Shown here piece by piece: positions 1-34,654 of a DNA stretch of 39,624 bases; within the stretch, counting starts at the first letter, position 1, and every line of letters starts with the position of its first letter. The notes under the pieces are model-generated. The model did no database searches, was not told where the DNA came from, and saw nothing but the letters and a program-made list of their open reading frames with translations. The DNA lies in UHGV virus genome UHGV-0068444; one strand, 5' to 3'. The position numbers were made by a program, and so were the translations under genes. The DNA is from a virus.

Positions 1-6
1 TAACGG

Positions 7-39
7 TTATCAAAACTTTATCAAAATAAGTTATCAAAA
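7..39. repeat. Three direct copies of TTATCAAAA (7-15, 18-26, 31-39) at 11-13 bp spacing, just upstream of the GTG start at 50
   Basis: Exact 9-mer seen three times within 33 bp; possible integrase arm-type sites of attL or operator sites for the adjacent cargo gene. Confidence 0.5.
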
Positions 40-49
40 CGAGGTTGAA

Positions 50-667
50 GTGAAACGCATAAGGATAAAGAAACCAAGATGGATTTTTGTTATTTTATTT
101 TTTGTATTTTTAGGTATTCCATTATTTATTGATGGTATCAAGTATACTGATTACGCTTCAGAGAATTTGCTGCCTGAATTTACTGGTGTAATACTTGAGT
201 TTGTAATCATTCTTTATGTTATTGATTATATTCAAAAGAAAAATGAGCGTGATAATAAAATAAAAGCAGAAAAACGTTTGCGTGAAATGTTTATTTTTTT
301 CTTTAATAAACTGAATGACCACGTTCCTGAAAATTGCAGGATCGGATCTTTTTACGGGCGAGAGCATGATAAAAATAAGCGTCAAATGTCATTAATGAAA
401 GCCCATATAGAAAAACATGGGCTAGATGAAAAGGCAATAAGAGAAATTCGTATTCATTGCAAAGGTGATATTGATTTATTCAATAGTTTTATTCCAGTTG
501 TTGCTACATTAGAAGAGCAGCATTTAAAAGCATGGACGAGAATTTCATATTACATGAATGCAATAATTACGGAAAGAGAAACTGTACAATTTTCCGTTAT
601 AAAAATCATTGATAAAATACAGACATTTGATGATGCATCCTATAATAATAAACTGATAGTAGATTAA
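50..667 (+). CDS. Hypothetical membrane protein (two N-terminal hydrophobic helices plus charged cytoplasmic domain); AT-rich cargo gene
   Basis: 205-aa ORF with GTG start and AGGT-type RBS; visibly AT-rich versus the adjacent int; converges on and overlaps the int stop by 4 nt. Confidence 0.5.
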   Translation: MKRIRIKKPRWIFVILFFVFLGIPLFIDGIKYTDYASENLLPEFTGVILEFVIILYVIDYIQKKNERDNKIKAEKRLREMFIFFFNKLNDHVPENCRIGSFYGREHDKNKRQMSLMKAHIEKHGLDEKAIREIRIHCKGDIDLFNSFIPVVATLEEQHLKAWTRISYYMNAIITERETVQFSVIKIIDKIQTFDDASYNNKLIVD

Positions 668-1791
668 GAGGGTATTTTTTGCCATTCTTTACCTCTGTCA
701 TCATGATATTTATCTGTTTGATGCTGGGTTTTATGACCCAGCAATTTTTGTGTATCAATTCCCTGGTCTTTGTAAAGACGTTCAGACAATGATCTTTGCT
801 CATGGAATGTAGCGGGTGTTCCATCTCCCCATTTAATACAAGCCTTATCCCTCGCCTTACTGAAATTCATCGTTAATGTGTTCGATTTAACTTGTGCGCC
901 TCGTTTAGCCTGTGATGTAGCTCGGAAAAAGTGAATCAGATAGGGGCTAACTGCATAATCTCGACAGCGCGCAACGACGTCACGTAAACTCCAGTTAATC
1001 GCATTGAGGCGAAGAGAAAGAGGTATAGCAATTTTGCTGCCGGTTTTTTCCTGTTCGATATGCAGATGATCATCCCAGATATCGCTAAATTTCATTTTGG
1101 ATATGTCACCAAGACGTTGCCCAGTCACAAGGGCAAGCAGCATTGCATTTCCCATATATTGATGTTTCTTATCTGCGATATCGAAAATCTTCAGCCACTC
1201 TTCGAGACTAAGTCGTTGTCTGGTAATCTTGCGCCTGGGCTGTTTAGTAGCAAGGGCAGGGTTGTGACCAGGCGGCACTTCACCGTAGTGTTGGGCCTCT
1301 TTGAAAACATCGATCAGTACTGAACGAACAACTTGTGCCATTCTTGGTTGACCTGCAGATAGATACTCTTCAAGAATTTGAGCAATATCCCTGACATCAA
1401 CAGAAGATATGAGCTTCATTCCCGCACGTTCCTTAAGAAGTGCAACTGGCTTGGCTTTTTGTTTATACGTATTCTCCTTGATATCACCTGAAGCGAATCT
1501 TTCCTCCTGAATTTTCCAGTACCGCTCAAGCCAGGTAACAGTGGTAATTGACTTACCCTTGCCGGTAGCAATTCGATCGCTTATAGCCAGTACCTGTCTT
1601 GAACGCTGCTCAGCAAGTCTTGCGTTTGCCTCAGTAGCAATTGCTTTAGCCTCAACTTCATCAGTACCTAGGCTGTGAAATTTCCCCGTTACAGGATGCT
1701 TGTACCTCCAATACACTTTATTGACCTTACGACTGTATAGTGGATAGAGGTTAGGTATTGATACATTATTTTTACGTGGTCTCGCAGCCAT
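664..1791 (-). CDS. int: Tyrosine integrase, lambda Int family
   Basis: Start at MAARPRKNNVSIPNLY (ORF extends to 1869); N-terminus and C-terminal HEQRSLSERLY...LLGHK...YHDDRG region parallel lambda Int arm-binding and catalytic motifs. Confidence 0.9.
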   Translation of the reverse strand: MAARPRKNNVSIPNLYPLYSRKVNKVYWRYKHPVTGKFHSLGTDEVEAKAIATEANARLAEQRSRQVLAISDRIATGKGKSITTVTWLERYWKIQEERFASGDIKENTYKQKAKPVALLKERAGMKLISSVDVRDIAQILEEYLSAGQPRMAQVVRSVLIDVFKEAQHYGEVPPGHNPALATKQPRRKITRQRLSLEEWLKIFDIADKKHQYMGNAMLLALVTGQRLGDISKMKFSDIWDDHLHIEQEKTGSKIAIPLSLRLNAINWSLRDVVARCRDYAVSPYLIHFFRATSQAKRGAQVKSNTLTMNFSKARDKACIKWGDGTPATFHEQRSLSERLYKDQGIDTQKLLGHKTQHQTDKYHDDRGKEWQKIPS

Positions 1792-2017
1792 CGCTGAGGA
1801 TCCTTTGCAATTTTGGTGAATCAGATTTCTTGATAACCGGCGCAGCAAGTTCTCCAACCAATTCCGCATCCTCCCTAACTCTCCAGAGCCTACCTTGCTT
1901 CATTGCTGGTGGAGAAAAGAGATTTTGCTTAGCGTAACGGCGCAATGTCGAGACGCTAGGTGGATTACTTCTGTATTTATCGGTTGCCCATTCTTCAAGA
2001 GTTAACATCTGAATCAT
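1772..2017 (-). CDS. xis: Excisionase (lambda Xis-like)
   Basis: 81 aa; MLTLEEWA...RRYAKQNLFSPP resembles lambda Xis MYLTLQEW...RRWVRECRIFPPP; GGAG RBS; overlaps int start as in lambda. Confidence 0.75.
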   Translation of the reverse strand: MIQMLTLEEWATDKYRSNPPSVSTLRRYAKQNLFSPPAMKQGRLWRVREDAELVGELAAPVIKKSDSPKLQRILSDGCETT

Positions 2018-2062
2018 GCGTTATTCTCCATTTAATAACCCGGCTGCACCCGGCATACGTCA

Positions 2063-2365
2063 TTATAAATTATCGCTGGTTAGCTTTGGTGGAACAGCAT
2101 AGAGAGGCCCAGGTGAGACATCAAAACGGCGCCAGCGTATATTACAGGTTCTCTCTTCACCTTTTTTGTGCCAGGCAACGACATCTGCCACTGGCTCGGC
2201 GTTCCTACCTGCCAACACCTCATCTACTACCTTCAACATATCCGCGAGAATGTAAGCTCTGTTCCCGCCGTTTGAGTACTGGGTATCATGCAGTAGGTGT
2301 TCACGTATCTGGTGTAGGCGATCGAGTGATACAGAACCGTTCGCCGGGTGGTTGTTAGTTGTCAT
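2063..2365 (-). CDS. Hypothetical phage early protein
   Basis: 100-aa ORF in the leftward early operon; stop/start overlap with the upstream gene. Confidence 0.5.
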   Translation of the reverse strand: MTTNNHPANGSVSLDRLHQIREHLLHDTQYSNGGNRAYILADMLKVVDEVLAGRNAEPVADVVAWHKKGEERTCNIRWRRFDVSPGPLYAVPPKLTSDNL

Positions 2366-2691
2366 GCTGCCCCCCTACGTTGATGGCCCAGTGCGTGACG
2401 CGCTTCTATCGGGTCCTCTTCTTCGTATTCACCATTGACGCTTTTCACCATCGCCACGCAGCATTCGTTGCAGCACCGATAGGACATAAGTTCGCCGTCG
2501 AATTTCCACGCCGTACTACGGTGAATTTCATCCTTTAAAATTACGCCAGCGCAAATGTGGCATTTGTATTCACCTCGAGAGGTAACGATTTTGTTCGATA
2601 GTTCTGTATCGCATGGCGTACCGAAATCACCTTCGAAAAGATCAAAGTCCAGTGCGTCGTCTAAATCCTGTTTGTTGAGTGAGTTAGTCAT
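2362..2691 (-). CDS. Hypothetical Cys-rich early protein (possible zinc-binding)
   Basis: Start MTNSLNKQDL with GGAGG RBS; CHIC...CCNECC cysteine cluster; translationally coupled to neighbours. Confidence 0.5.
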   Translation of the reverse strand: MTNSLNKQDLDDALDFDLFEGDFGTPCDTELSNKIVTSRGEYKCHICAGVILKDEIHRSTAWKFDGELMSYRCCNECCVAMVKSVNGEYEEEDPIEARHALGHQRRGAA

Positions 2692-3028
2692 TCCAGGCCT
2701 CCAGCTCATTCTGAATCTCTTCGTCGATTTCGTCATTGGTGGCGTCTTCGTTCAGATAGGCGTGCGCCTCTTTGAAATACTTGTCGCGGCGTTCGTCATA
2801 CCAGGCAGAGAACTCAGGCGACCAGGCATGGGTATGTCCGAAAAAATCGACTCTGGCGTTATCTTCTGCGAGACGCTCAACCATGCAGTAAGCTGTGATC
2901 AAACCGCATTCACGGATGTACCCACGCAGGTCGCGCTTGCGCCAGTACGGGCTATATTTCGAGTCGCAGCGGCTTTTAAATTCGACAGTCCAGCGACGGA
3001 TGCAACGTGCGTTCAGTGATTTACTCAT
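2684..3028 (-). CDS. Hypothetical phage early protein
   Basis: 114-aa ORF; ATGA start/stop overlap with the upstream gene at 3025-3028. Confidence 0.5.
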   Translation of the reverse strand: MSKSLNARCIRRWTVEFKSRCDSKYSPYWRKRDLRGYIRECGLITAYCMVERLAEDNARVDFFGHTHAWSPEFSAWYDERRDKYFKEAHAYLNEDATNDEIDEEIQNELEAWND

Positions 3029-7302: not shown

Positions 7303-7545
7303 ATGGAAACGTTAAGAAATTACCTAAACGCTTTGTCGCTCGAAAAACAGAGAGAGTTTGCATCACGATGCGAAACCTCTCTTGAGTACTTGCGTAAAGC
7401 CATAAGCAAAAAACAAAAGTTGGGAGCTGCTCTATCTGTTTCTATCGAAACGCATTCGGGCGGCTCAGTTAGCAGGAAAAACCTCCACCCAGATGATTGG
7501 GAAAAGATTTGGCCTGAACTTGATCATAAAAAAACAGCAGCATGA
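7303..7545 (+). CDS. Cro/YdaS-like small DNA-binding regulator
   Basis: 80 aa; METLRNYLNALSLEKQREFASR...; AGGAGG RBS; divergent from CI across the operator region. Confidence 0.65.
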   Translation: METLRNYLNALSLEKQREFASRCETSLEYLRKAISKKQKLGAALSVSIETHSGGSVSRKNLHPDDWEKIWPELDHKKTAA

Positions 7546-7819: not shown

Positions 7820-8052
7820 CACTGCGTACGTTGATATTGCTCTTCGGTTTCTTTTGATCTGGCGGACTCTATTTCCTTCAGTTTGTTTCGGTAAAGCTCA
7901 CTGAAGACCAGTTCTGCATTGGTGATCAACTGAAAAACCTCTTCTGGCGACTTCTGGAATGTTTTGAAGTGACCAGACAAGACAAGATTCATGGCCAGAT
8001 CGTGAGCGGCTTCTTCGGGAGACTTGCCGTAAGGCAGTGAATTTACAGACAT
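7816..8052 (-). CDS. Small hypothetical protein encoded antisense within the rightward early region
   Basis: 78 aa from MSVNSLPYGKSPEEAAH; AAGGAGG RBS 7 nt upstream; converges on the 7575-7819 gene with 4-nt overlap. Confidence 0.5.
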   Translation of the reverse strand: MSVNSLPYGKSPEEAAHDLAMNLVLSGHFKTFQKSPEEVFQLITNAELVFSELYRNKLKEIESARSKETEEQYQRTQC

Positions 8053-14280: not shown

Positions 14281-15132
14281 ATGAAAATAGATAATCCCGA
14301 AAATCCACTTGAACGAAACGATTTTTCGATGGATGACTTCCATCACTACTTAAGGGAGTTTGATAAAGCTGTATGTGAAGCGAATGCTGTAAGTCAGGGG
14401 GTTGGTGTGCGAATGGCTGAGGCTTTTAAAGGGTGGTCTACATACATTTTTTCACGAATCTGCATTCATGCTTCAATAATGATTTCCAACGTACCAAAAT
14501 CAAGATGGGCTAAGCGGGATTATGACTTTTGGGATTTTTCGGCGATTGCACCTCATGTAAGAGCGATTCTGGAAGCTGAGTTATTGTTTATGTATTTATC
14601 TGAGAATCCAGATTCAACTGAGGAGTGGTCAGCAAAGTTGAATGTCATGCACATGAATGATTGTGTAAAGAGAATTGAGTTATTTACATCTAGTGATAAT
14701 ACGAAAGCATTGGATTTTTATCATGAACAAAAAGATATAATAACTGAGAGACTTAATAACAACCCTGTTTTTTTATCCCTTGAACAAGGAACCAGAAAAC
14801 GTTGCTTGACTGGAAAAGCGCTTATGATTCCAAATCGAGATGAGTTATTGGTTAAACTGGGAAAAGATCCAAAGTCATTTAAAATAATGTTCGATTTTTT
14901 ATCTCATTATACGCATATACTACCTATGTCATATTATAAAATGGAGCCAAACGGAAGAGGAACTGGTTGTTTTAACAACTATGACTTTGGCTATATGATT
15001 ATGGGGATGATTATTTGTACTGAATCCTTGACTAAGTGTACAGATAGATTAGTAGAACTTTTTCCTGATGTTAGACGGTTGCGAAAAGGAACTAAATCAA
15101 AATTCACGTTAGGTCCTAAACCTACAAAATAA
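14281..15132 (+). CDS. AT-rich hypothetical protein (283 aa), cargo gene; function unknown
   Basis: ATG after AGGTGAAG RBS; visibly lower GC than flanking phage genes; no hydrophobic segments; no motif recognised. Confidence 0.6.
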   Translation: MKIDNPENPLERNDFSMDDFHHYLREFDKAVCEANAVSQGVGVRMAEAFKGWSTYIFSRICIHASIMISNVPKSRWAKRDYDFWDFSAIAPHVRAILEAELLFMYLSENPDSTEEWSAKLNVMHMNDCVKRIELFTSSDNTKALDFYHEQKDIITERLNNNPVFLSLEQGTRKRCLTGKALMIPNRDELLVKLGKDPKSFKIMFDFLSHYTHILPMSYYKMEPNGRGTGCFNNYDFGYMIMGMIICTESLTKCTDRLVELFPDVRRLRKGTKSKFTLGPKPTK

Positions 15133-15350: not shown

Positions 15351-16013
15351 TTATGAAGAGAGCAGCATGACTTTTTCTTTTGCGGGCGAAGGTGACTGCT
15401 CTTTCAAAGGGAAAATTATAAATGCTATAAATGCAGTAAATAATACTATGAAAGCTAGCACTGTAACTTTCCTTGAAGATGATAGGGCTTTGTTATATTC
15501 CTTGGCTATTTTGTTCGTTATATGGATCTTAGTGCTATTTATTTCATCTTTTAGTATGGATAATTTATTTATAAATTCCTGTGTTTCTTCTCGAGAGTAA
15601 AGTTCTGAAGCATCTCTTGGGGTTTCATGTGGATGCCGAGTATAACCAAGTATTTGTGGTATTAAATTACCATGCGATTGAACTACAGATTCATATTTCT
15701 TATAGCAAGCATTATCAAAAAATCTCATTCTTATGCTAAGTTCTCTGAGTTTGTCAACGTCTAGAGAAACTTGTTCGTTGGCAATAATTAAATCTCCGCG
15801 GTTTAATGTATTCTTGTGTTGAAAAATTAGTAAAAGCCATTCTGTATTATTGTAAAGCTTTTCAAGATTGGCATGTATATCAAGTCCGAGTTTTTCATAT
15901 GCGGATAATTTGACCTCTTTTTCCTTTGCAGAAAGAGAAGATGAATAAGCCAGTAATCCGCTTATTATGGCAACAATAAATGTTCCTATAATGGTTAAGG
16001 TATTCGAGTCCAT
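15351..16013 (-). CDS. AT-rich hypothetical membrane protein (one N-terminal and one C-terminal TM helix), cargo gene
   Basis: Start MDSNTLTIIGTFIVAIISGLL (ORF extends to 16070); C-terminal VLAFIVLFTAFIAFIIF hydrophobic helix; convergent with the 14281 gene. Confidence 0.55.
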   Translation of the reverse strand: MDSNTLTIIGTFIVAIISGLLAYSSSLSAKEKEVKLSAYEKLGLDIHANLEKLYNNTEWLLLIFQHKNTLNRGDLIIANEQVSLDVDKLRELSIRMRFFDNACYKKYESVVQSHGNLIPQILGYTRHPHETPRDASELYSREETQEFINKLSILKDEINSTKIHITNKIAKEYNKALSSSRKVTVLAFIVLFTAFIAFIIFPLKEQSPSPAKEKVMLLSS

Positions 16014-16120
16014 TGTATTCTTCAAAAGTTGGTCAAAAATATATTGTAATATTTTAATGTATAAAATCAATCATTTCCCCTCATTCTGAGAGGACTCCCA
16101 GCAACAAAGAGGGGGGCTAA

Positions 16121-17666: not shown

Positions 17667-17808
17667 GGTTATTGACACCGGCTGCGATTGGGTAAAACCC
17701 ATCTACGGCACTGCTCATGATTGGGAAGTGCTGGACAGGCAGACCAAGAAAGACATTCTTATGCATAACAAAGTGTGGATGTCAAACTGTGGCTCTATAA
17801 CTTATTGA
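17587..17808 (+). CDS. Outer-membrane lipoprotein spanin (Rz1-like), overlapping Rz out of frame
   Basis: MYNRLLTICLMTLLIASC has a lipobox (LIASC); starts inside the Rz-like ORF in another frame. Confidence 0.6.
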   Translation: MYNRLLTICLMTLLIASCAKTGHVRIEVIDTGCDWVKPIYGTAHDWEVLDRQTKKDILMHNKVWMSNCGSITY

Positions 17809-18459
17809 TTTTGTTTTTTTGTTGTCTACCATATCAGGCAATGTGAAGGCATATAGAAGAAATACTTCGGTGAAACCAATCATTTCTTGAGCATCTTCTT
17901 TTGAAAATTCTTCATCAGAATGAACTGCTCCATTGGAATCGATTCGAACTATATGTGCCCATTCCCTCATTTGATCTGTAATCAGTCCCTTAGCATGCAA
18001 CATAGAAATCCGTTTAACCAATTTTTCATCTTTTGAGTCATTTCCCAGTAACTCCCGTGTAGCAATGTCCAAGACTTTACGGCAAAGCATAACGGATGTG
18101 TCGAAACGACAGCGCCCTAAGTTGTCTTTTGCTTCTATGAAAGCCATAGCAGCACGTGGCGGAGTGTGTTCGGGGGCGTTAAGGAGGGTGGGTTTCGGGA
18201 TGATATCAATCAACTGGTACTCAGTATTTCCAGGAATGATTACGTTTACATCATTATTTTGCCTAGATTTTGCACGAGGTAAATAACCACCGGGATTATT
18301 CATTTTTACAATAGCAATACCTGATTGAAAACAGCTTCGACAACAAAATGCAATATTAACTAAAGGCCCGGCGTTGATACGCAGTTCTGCCCATCCTTCA
18401 AGGACAGCATTTTCCCTCAGACAATGTGGGCAAGTGATATCGAAAGTGAGAATTCGCAT
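17782..18459 (-). CDS. Hypothetical protein with N-terminal zinc-ribbon (CPHC...CCRSC) and C-terminal helical domain; reverse-strand cargo gene
   Basis: Start MRILTFDITCPHCL after GGAG RBS (ORF extends to 18504); moderately AT-rich; C-terminal region loosely reminiscent of DUF4145-type domains (unverified). Confidence 0.55.
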   Translation of the reverse strand: MRILTFDITCPHCLRENAVLEGWAELRINAGPLVNIAFCCRSCFQSGIAIVKMNNPGGYLPRAKSRQNNDVNVIIPGNTEYQLIDIIPKPTLLNAPEHTPPRAAMAFIEAKDNLGRCRFDTSVMLCRKVLDIATRELLGNDSKDEKLVKRISMLHAKGLITDQMREWAHIVRIDSNGAVHSDEEFSKEDAQEMIGFTEVFLLYAFTLPDMVDNKKTKSISYRATV

Positions 18460-19140
18460 GACTCTACTCCATACATTAAAAGAAATTGAAAATGAATTAC
18501 ACAATGCACAACGACCTGAGTCTACACTCCTTCAACGATATGAAGTATCGAATGAGATTAAAAAAAAGGAGTTTGTAGTCGCTTTGATCGGTAAACTGAT
18601 AGAATTGGACCGCCGTCTCTATGTCACATCATTGAAGCCTTAGTTTCAATTTTACCGATTTATCGCTTAAGGGGTAGGACTTCAACACTACTAAGTGAGC
18701 ATTGCAGCAGGCATTCAGGGGAATGCTGTGACAGTAGTTAGCTAGGGTAAACCGTTTGCGCCTGGGGATTTTACTTTGCGACGGAAAATTAAAAAACTAT
18801 ATGATTTCTTATCCCACTAGGATGTCTGCGGACTACTACTGACTGTTTAGGCTATTACGAGGGGCTCAAACTCAACGTCTGGCATCAACGCAGAACTGAA
18901 AAAGTCGCCATGAATGTGGTTACGGTATTTGGTGGGATATAAACGTACCTTCATTTCTAAGCTTGATAATCACCTTTGTCCGAATTGCCTACGCGATAGT
19001 CATGTAGTTTTAGTCATAACCGTTTACCCTATTGATGTCAAGATAAATTGGATAACACTGATGAATCGAACCTCTAAATCCTTTGATGGGCCACTCATAG
19101 CTGACTGGTTCAAAAAAGTGTTATCAATGGTATGATAAGT

Positions 19141-33365: not shown

Positions 33366-33481
33366 AGATCGAAGAATCGATCTGATCGATCGATATATTT
33401 AATTGAACTTATTCAGCTGCTGGTGATGTTGTTCAGGCGCACGCCATGGTGCGCCTTATAAACAAACTGAAGGGAAACAAT

Positions 33482-34012
33482 ATGAATAAGTTAGCAGTGG
33501 CTGTTCTGGCTATGTCGGTTCTTGGTGGTGTCGGGGTTGCAAGTGCCGCTGATTATAAAAATACCGTGTCTCTGGGATATGCACATACACATTTGTCTGG
33601 TTTGATTTCAGGAAATGCAGCTGGTGCGAATCTGAAATATAACTGGGAACATCTGAATAGCGGGTTTGGCGTAGTGGGATCGCTTACCTATACCGAAGCT
33701 GATCTTAATAATTATTATTACGGCTATCGGGTTGGCGAAGTTAACTACACGTCTTTCCTTGTGGGGCCGTCATATCGTTTTAATGATTTTCTGAGTACCT
33801 ACATCATGCTCGGAGGGGCCAGTGGCGAAGTGAAAGATAATTTTGGGCACAGTGAATCTAAAACGAGTTTCGCCTATGGGATCGGTATCCAGGTTAACCC
33901 GGTAGAGCATTTTGCAATCAATGCCTCATATGAGCATGCTAAATTCAGTACTCAACTGGGTGATGATATTGATGCCGGAACCTGGGTTTTGGGTGTGGGT
34001 TACAGTTTCTGA
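33482..34012 (+). CDS. lom: Ail/Lom/PagC-family outer-membrane beta-barrel protein (cargo gene)
   Basis: Start MNKLAVAVLAMSVLGGVGVASA (signal peptide); ends GVGYSF (aromatic terminal residue typical of OMPs); alternating hydrophobic pattern; lower GC than neighbours. Confidence 0.8.
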   Translation: MNKLAVAVLAMSVLGGVGVASAADYKNTVSLGYAHTHLSGLISGNAAGANLKYNWEHLNSGFGVVGSLTYTEADLNNYYYGYRVGEVNYTSFLVGPSYRFNDFLSTYIMLGGASGEVKDNFGHSESKTSFAYGIGIQVNPVEHFAINASYEHAKFSTQLGDDIDAGTWVLGVGYSF

Positions 34013-34126: not shown

Positions 34127-34654
34127 CTAGTTTATGACACCACAAGAAAAACGTGCCCCACCTCCGCCAAGAGTCACCGGAGTGTCAGAGTAGTTATCAC
34201 CACCTTTGTGGATCATAAGTGAATGCCCCTTAAGGTCGGACAGTGATTTAAGGCGCGGAGCCAGGATCGGGTATGTGGCATGACCATCAGTGTTGACAAC
34301 CAGCCCAGGCAGATCGCCCAGGTGACCTTTATCATTGTACGGTCCAAGGTGTTTACCTGTTTTCTCAGGATCCAGATGACCTCCCGCCATCAGGGCTGGC
34401 ACATTTTTTCCATCCTGGAGACCAGGCATGCAGGATGGATTAGTATGGACATGGAAGCCATGAACTCCCGGGGTAAGGTTGTTAAGGTCGGGGGTAAAAA
34501 GCAGGCCGTAAGGTGTCTCAGACACAGTTATTTCGCCGATGTTTTTACCTGCACCGTCAGAGAGTACGTCGTTCATTTTGACGGTCAGGCTGTTTTCTGC
34601 CACCGCTGAACAACTGATCAACATTCCAGCCATCACTAATATTCTTAATTCCAT
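34127..34654 (-). CDS. sodC: Periplasmic Cu/Zn superoxide dismutase (cargo gene)
   Basis: 175 aa with signal peptide; HGFHVH, GGHLDP, HLGDLP and GGGGAR...CGVI motifs characteristic of Cu,Zn-SOD. Confidence 0.9.
   Translation of the reverse strand: MELRILVMAGMLISCSAVAENSLTVKMNDVLSDGAGKNIGEITVSETPYGLLFTPDLNNLTPGVHGFHVHTNPSCMPGLQDGKNVPALMAGGHLDPEKTGKHLGPYNDKGHLGDLPGLVVNTDGHATYPILAPRLKSLSDLKGHSLMIHKGGDNYSDTPVTLGGGGARFSCGVIN

Follow-up and report, generated by a model that had tools for sequence, protein, structure and literature searches.

The window analysed here, the whole 39,624-nt stretch of virus genome UHGV-0068444, begins with three exact plus-strand copies of the 9-mer TTATCAAAA, followed by a gene for a 205-aa protein that converges on an integrase gene (Table 1). 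The triple repeat and its spacing (starts 11 and 13 nt apart) are as an earlier note, made from the letters of the DNA alone, had described them. The same holds for the 4-nt overlap between the two convergent genes, which arises where the stop of the 205-aa gene (665-667) and the minus-strand stop of int (664-666) share the palindrome TTAA. The int open reading frame was listed at 401 aa; we prefer the start that gives 375 aa, since the Pfam arm-binding domain, IntE and the public gene calls all begin there. The adjoining xis gene aligns at the DNA level to e14 xisE, and a terminator-like hairpin lies within the 3' end of int, 55 nt past the stop of the 205-aa gene. No Rfam match was found in window positions 1-3000. 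Elsewhere in the window TTATCAAAA occurs a single further time, at 15712-15720, where about 0.5 copies are expected by chance over both strands; this copy is isolated, lies within a minus-strand open reading frame (15351-16070), and was set aside as a functional site because it is consistent with chance.

Table 1. Features at the integrase end of the window, with the basis for each call.
Feature	Position	Strand	Basis and remarks
P'1, probable arm-type Int site	5..16	+	Dodecamer GGTTATCAAAAC, 9-mer at 7-15; exact repeat
P'2, probable arm-type Int site	16..27	+	CTTTATCAAAAT, 9-mer at 18-26; starts 11 nt after P'1
P'3, probable arm-type Int site	29..40	+	AGTTATCAAAAC, 9-mer at 31-39
Shine-Dalgarno GAGG	41..44	+	5 nt ahead of the GTG; kept in Citrobacter and Raoultella loci
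Cargo gene, 205-aa predicted inner-membrane protein	50..667	+	Open reading frame, GTG start
int, lambda-type tyrosine integrase of e14 (IntE) type, 375 aa	664..1791	-	PF09003 (E 5.2e-36), PF00589 (E 2e-15)
Terminator-like hairpin and T-run	722..743 (L004 10673-10694)	+	Consensus scan, pattern match only
xis, excisionase, 81 aa	1772..2017	-	Open reading frame overlapping the int start; PF07825 (Exc) on the identical public gene call

The chromosomal setting of this end was established from public sequences. The exact 205-aa protein occurs in 69 blocks of public assemblies, and eight places yielded surrounding DNA, with E. coli or Enterobacteriaceae as the named hosts. An intact 416-aa icd lies directly upstream of the cargo gene in all six places whose locus reaches far enough, in the gene order phoQP-purB-hflD-mnmA-nudJ-rluE-icd, and the remaining two of the eight are short contigs with identical upstream sequence, including the triple. 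Locus L004, from the complete chromosome CP057166.1, shows a terminator hairpin after the icd stop (11 pairs and a T-run in a consensus scan, which looks strong), and window position 1 comes 16 nt beyond it. This icd is 98% identical to that of K-12 over its first 1080 nt and 92% identical over its last 165 nt, a drop that fits a core within icd and a 3' end supplied by the phage. The core (…CGCCATATGG…, L004 9730) was located within icd, some 222 nt left of position 1, in line with the suggestion of the earlier note that the attL core lies at or beyond the window edge. The repeats lie about 228-260 nt from the core, and are this far from it because the icd' segment lies between. Together, insertion at icd and an IntE-type integrase identify a prophage of the e14/phage 21 type. 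With considerable confidence we read the window as opening inside attL, the prophage being an e14-like lambdoid element in the 3' end of E. coli icd and the repeats its P' arm sites. The left boundary of the prophage is thereby settled for annotation: it lies within icd and not at the window edge. We also considered a boundary between int and the cargo gene, which would make the gene and the repeats host DNA, and rejected it; in K-12 the original icd 3' end, now at attR, has a terminator of its own and is followed by neither the repeats nor the gene.

The repeats recur at the same place in relatives. K-12 e14 has the same TTATCAAAA triple after the icd terminator, with ymfD, ymfE and lit as the next genes; E. 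coli PCP07014 has it after icd with a degenerate third copy and a putAbiC protein as cargo; vB_EcoM-689R6 has it with a DUF262 cargo; and it follows icd in Raoultella and Citrobacter prophage remnants as well as in Proteus and Providencia. Scanning viral contigs for the exact triple yielded 74 loci, of which 38 are free of cargo, with the int stop 18-41 nt past the third repeat, and 24 have 0.5-3.7 kb between the third repeat and the int stop. The triple precedes about 25 unrelated cargo sets, some of them on the opposite strand. Since it is present both without cargo and with many different cargos, it belongs to the att/int module and is not an operator of the 205-aa gene; an operator had been the second reading offered by the earlier note. 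That the repeats are operators or promoter elements of this gene, bound by a phage or host regulator, would agree with their place between the terminator and the ribosome-binding site and with their invariance before orthologues, even in remnants with a truncated int. We nevertheless consider it very improbable: in the cargo-free loci the same triple abuts the int stop, K-12 e14 has the triple yet no plus-strand gene for about 2 kb, a fourth copy stands at a fixed distance from the core in the P arm, and no sigma-70 promoter is predicted at the repeats.

The earlier note had proposed looking for the 9-mer near the other prophage end, which is where this fourth copy stands in relatives. In the attR of e14 and of PCP07014, the dodecamer GGTTATCAAAAC occurs in the same orientation as in the triple, with 124 nt from its last A to CGCCATATGGG at the core. 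The GGTTATCAAAAC-CGCCATATGGG pattern is present in 58 viral contigs, always with a gap of 123-125 nt. The P-arm copy is known from these relatives, as the window's own attR lies outside the source contig, which ends 106 nt after a J-like tail gene. Across 53 distinct aligned P arms, conservation stops at the dodecamer, and the sequence to its left is unalignable. Contig L078 contains a complete attP, consisting of the P-arm site, the core, icd' and the triple. The stretch bounded by the P-arm dodecamer and the third P' repeat measures about 395 bp. A 1997 study by Wang et al. in J Bacteriol is said to have delimited a minimal phage 21 attP of 366-418 bp with limits at "repeated dodecamers", and the span observed here fits that size.

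Two further observations concern the flanks of these sites. Just outside the P-arm dodecamer of e14 lies mcrA, the gene for the McrA restriction enzyme (L020 1722-2555), which, along with the variable sequence beyond the dodecamer at 53 attR sites, suggests a second cargo slot at the other att end. In cargo-free relatives (loci L093-L149), a C-rich spacer, CCCCnCCCnAAAA, which resembles the phage 21 arm motif TTCCCCAAAA and is missing from the window, stands between the third repeat and the int stop, and e14 has an inverted TTTTGGGG after its triple (L019 1780-1805); both are candidates for a fourth site, a relic or a terminator.

Within the triple, the P'1 dodecamer is invariant in every e14-type attL examined and corresponds in position to the first annotated subsite of phage 21. 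The 11-nt phasing of P'1 and P'2 is common to the window, e14 and Providencia. On the P' arm, conservation ends with P'3; to its right the sequence is wholly different between loci, consisting of cargo or of a short C-rich spacer ahead of the int stop. Loci with cargo genes that have become saturated at synonymous sites (pS 0.68-0.83) agree at every one of the 27 repeat bases, a comparison of sequences which suggests that selection acts on the repeats.

The repeat motif also tracks the type of integrase: TTATCAAAA accompanies e14-type Ints, and TTCCCCAAAA accompanies Int21. The window Int has an N-terminal PF09003 arm-DNA-binding domain and is 85% identical to IntE, 91% to the PCP07014 Int and 58% to the phage 21 Int, with about 75% DNA identity between window int and intE. 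The N-terminal 64 aa are near-identical in the window Int, IntE and the PCP07014 Int and have diverged in Int21, so that the difference between the two arm motifs is matched by a corresponding difference between the Int N-domains. Both motifs meet in a Providencia sp. MAG (L166), which has a 21-type arm site, ATTCCCCAAAAC (7481-7492), 124 nt left of the core and, on the other side of the core and icd', the TTATCAAAA triple (about 7843-7876), a homologue of the 205-aa protein and an integrase; such a hybrid junction is the product expected of 21-type and e14-type prophages in tandem at icd.

Sites for IHF or another host bending protein, in place of Int, offer a different explanation of the repeats. 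The IHF consensus is WATCAANNNNTTR, and it is matched by the first repeat with the start of the second (TATCAAAACTTTA). The second, third and P-arm copies depart from this consensus, leaving one fit among four, and so do the equivalent phage 21 sites (TTCCCCAAAA); in addition, the motif changes along with the type of integrase, something that binding by a host factor would not call for. We therefore regard this explanation as exceedingly unlikely. Judged by position, conservation and co-variation with the integrase, the TTATCAAAA triple very probably represents arm-type Int sites, the first reading of the earlier note: the triple stays with the att/int module whatever the cargo, a fourth copy lies in the P arm, and phage 21 provides a parallel. 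Arm sites of this kind are known biology of the e14/21 phage family, and the TTATCAAAA/dodecamer motif offers a means of finding and typing these att sites, as in the 58 and 74 viral contigs described above.

The short interval from the third arm site to the int stop constitutes a compact, sharply bounded cargo slot, with about 25 alternative gene sets in a survey of 24 cargo-bearing viral contigs and genomic loci. Cargo between att and int had been called a recognised accessory position in the earlier note, and this survey agrees, many of the sets being defence genes. Identifiable contents include RexA with RexB, putAbiC, a SIR2_2 protein, a 537-aa cytidine-deaminase protein, AIPR, two HNH nucleases, AAA_15/AAA_21 ATPases with a methyltransferase or other partner, DUF262, DUF3800 and DUF2971 proteins and, in e14, Lit. 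Slot cargos are mostly on the plus strand and end at or overlap the int stop; most run in the direction of icd and start 10-100 nt past the third repeat. In the window, the insertion starts one base past the third repeat, ends at the int stop and replaces the C-rich spacer, giving a cargo segment of 628 bp with 29% GC, compared to the simplest relatives, in which the int stop follows about 20-40 nt past the third repeat. Known defence genes abound between att and int, and the slot is a hotspot for them. Because many of their slot neighbours are recognisable defence systems, unlabelled occupants such as the 205-aa membrane protein are good candidates for new anti-phage functions, and single genes with such defined borders are easy to test.

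At 29.4%, the GC content of the cargo gene is below that of its phage neighbours (about 45-55%). E. coli, Citrobacter and Raoultella supply eight orthologues, each of 205 aa, with 63-75% identity, a dN/dS of 0.105 and saturated synonymous sites; the low ratio and the constant length indicate a genuine gene under strong purifying selection. In Raoultella (L009-L013) and Citrobacter portucalensis (L014-L017), prophage remnants keep icd', the triple and an intact 205-aa orthologue, while only 214 or 85 aa of the integrase remain, with host genes or an insertion sequence after it. A homologue with 35-39% identity occupies the same slot in icd prophages of Proteus faecis and Providencia, so the family recurs in this slot. 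More distant homologues (Vibrio, Aeromonas, Shewanella and others) are found in mixed neighbourhoods with scattered defence genes and no constant partner. A profile search of 1.8 billion cluster representatives found 54 members, most of them 195-240 aa long. Megablast of window positions 1-2100 matched no phage record, and among 5,426 complete E. coli genomes no record covered the cargo gene.

Two N-terminal transmembrane helices followed by a further domain, as claimed previously for this AT-rich gene, were recovered at about residues 11-29 and 40-60 by Kyte-Doolittle windows and AlphaFold (mean pLDDT 79.5, and above 90 over most of the C-terminal part). The domain that follows is helical, and by AlphaFold and hydropathy TM2 runs on as a long helix into a helical bundle. 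The predicted topology puts the N-terminus inside, followed by a hairpin of two TM helices and, on the cytoplasmic side, a helical bundle of about 140 aa, the bundle being placed in the cytoplasm on account of positive charges that flank the hairpin on both sides and of two distant fusions. Among 26 diverse members, E43, G46 and E50 (all in TM2, forming an ExxGxxxE motif) and W162 are invariant, and R78, H158, K160 and F193 are nearly so. The two fusions, P0022 and P0025, are distant family members from AT-rich organisms and join the family domain to an extra TM segment and a weakly matched, periplasmic OmpA/MotB/ZorB-like peptidoglycan-binding domain, a hint that part of the family is tethered to the cell wall. 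A MotB/ZorB-like stator subunit was considered for the window protein and rejected, as the latter ends after the cytoplasmic bundle, without a periplasmic OmpA-like domain.

The HMM and structure searches that the earlier note had recommended for identifying the protein returned neither a curated-threshold match nor a specific fold. Pfam, PHROGs, PADLOC-DB v2 and NCBIfam gave no above-threshold match, with a sub-threshold DUF3671 as the only Pfam hit; PADLOC gave no hits for the window protein, for P0011 and P0013, or for the Providencia homologue. Foldseek found nothing in BFVD with E below 0.3, and structure searches in general returned generic helical bundles or nothing. The cargo gene represents an uncharacterised family within a well-defined defence slot.

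Position, composition and topology together make it plausible that the 205-aa protein is expressed in lysogens and acts at the membrane in defence or superinfection exclusion, the likeliest single role in our view, though we give it slightly less than even weight. Abi or Sie cargo typically consists of a lone low-GC gene for a small membrane protein. The protein might instead serve lysogenic conversion or prophage maintenance in another way, such as at the envelope, in stress, or in control of induction or lysis, or it might be a selfish passenger. This would agree with the lack of a match to any known defence family, with the mixed chromosomal contexts of distant homologues, and with the intact gene in the Raoultella and Citrobacter remnants, which would fit any host-beneficial role. 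The dominance of the slot by recognisable anti-phage genes, the strong purifying selection and the typical Abi/Sie traits of the gene speak against it, and we regard it as a serious possibility that is on balance doubtful. For defence or exclusion, a more specific proposal is put forward tentatively, as rather doubtful in its full form: the protein would found an undescribed single-gene anti-phage or exclusion family, in which TM2 forms a pore or proton leak (E43, E50) gated by a cytoplasmic helical sensor, and which has travelled with e14-type int/att from Escherichia to Providencia while diverging to 35% identity.

These observations can be arranged in a working model. The phage supplies a replacement icd 3' end and terminator, just left of the window. 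We infer that the N-terminal domain of Int docks on the three P' repeats and the one P-arm copy, from which arm-bound Int would bridge to the core within icd to form integrative and excisive complexes, as in lambda. A one-gene cargo has replaced the short spacer and encodes the predicted 205-aa inner-membrane protein, whose TM2 glutamate pair could belong to an oligomer that conducts ions or is gated, under the control of the cytoplasmic bundle. No sigma-70 promoter was predicted between the icd terminator and the cargo start codon, so that cargo transcripts may come from icd read-through across the arm sites, which would speculatively leave room for modulation by bound Int. In an extended form of this idea, the repeats would have a dual role, serving as arm sites while Int bound to them, or the nucleoprotein complex on attL, modulates icd-to-cargo transcription and couples expression to the prophage state. 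Slot cargos that mostly share the direction of icd and begin 10-100 nt past the third repeat are compatible with such coupling, as is read-through as a plausible transcript source for a gene lacking a predicted promoter, but the icd terminator looks strong (11 pairs, T-run) and the idea is purely inferential; we consider it improbable.

Other accessory genes are present in the window. Among the tail genes lie those for an Ail/Lom-family outer-membrane protein (33446-34009, plus strand) and a periplasmic Cu/Zn superoxide dismutase, SodC (34130-34654, minus strand; PF00080, E 5e-30), both of them accessory genes of the virulence type familiar from lambdoid phages. Between the Q antiterminator and holin genes, the interval occupied by stx in Stx phages, are two unannotated open reading frames (14281-15129, plus strand, and 15354-16070, minus strand), one of them with a sub-threshold DUF5677 match. 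A DUF4145 protein with a weak PD-T7-4 match (E 0.002) is encoded after the lysis genes (17785-18504, minus strand). The Q-holin reading frames and the DUF4145 gene may mark further accessory or defence slots.

According to Campbell's essay (PMC3530522), one bacterial site serves both phage 21 and e14, but their specificities differ and are set by sites on the phage DNA. Like the prophage in the window, phage 21 (attP in OL657228.1 and M61865.1) inserts in icd and brings a replacement icd 3' end and terminator. Three copies of TTCCCCAAAA follow right after the icd' terminator, annotated in the GenBank record as attP subsites P1P2P3, and one lies in the P arm, with offsets as in the e14 type (124 nt on the P side and about 235-236 nt from the core to the first P' site); int likewise converges on the repeats. 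Phage 21 differs in its motif (TTCCCCAAAA in place of TTATCAAAA), in an Int that is 58% identical with a diverged N-domain, and in the absence of cargo, its int ending 11 nt past the third repeat. The e14 element (attL-ymfD-ymfE-lit-intE) has the TTATCAAAA triple at 11/13 spacing in the same place, an Int of 85% identity, and cargo between the P' sites and int, including the Lit abortive-infection protease. Its cargo, however, is unrelated and measures 3.2 kb, and e14 is a defective 15-kb element, whereas the window has a full lambdoid gene set.

The attP of lambda has three tandem direct P' arm sites (P'1-P'3) and further P-arm sites, with an N-terminal arm-binding domain in its integrase. 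The window resembles it in having three tandem, direct, int-proximal arm sites; lambda differs in the sequence of the sites, in having two P-arm sites compared to the one conserved copy here, and in P' sites that lie much nearer the core. For the 205-aa protein, the closest parallels are lambda RexB, P22 SieA and SieB, and HK97 gp15, which are also small inner-membrane proteins encoded by low-GC accessory genes at a prophage end. The 205-aa protein has a topology of its own, without sequence or specific fold similarity to these proteins, and homologues of RexA and RexB occupy the very same slot in relatives of the window prophage.
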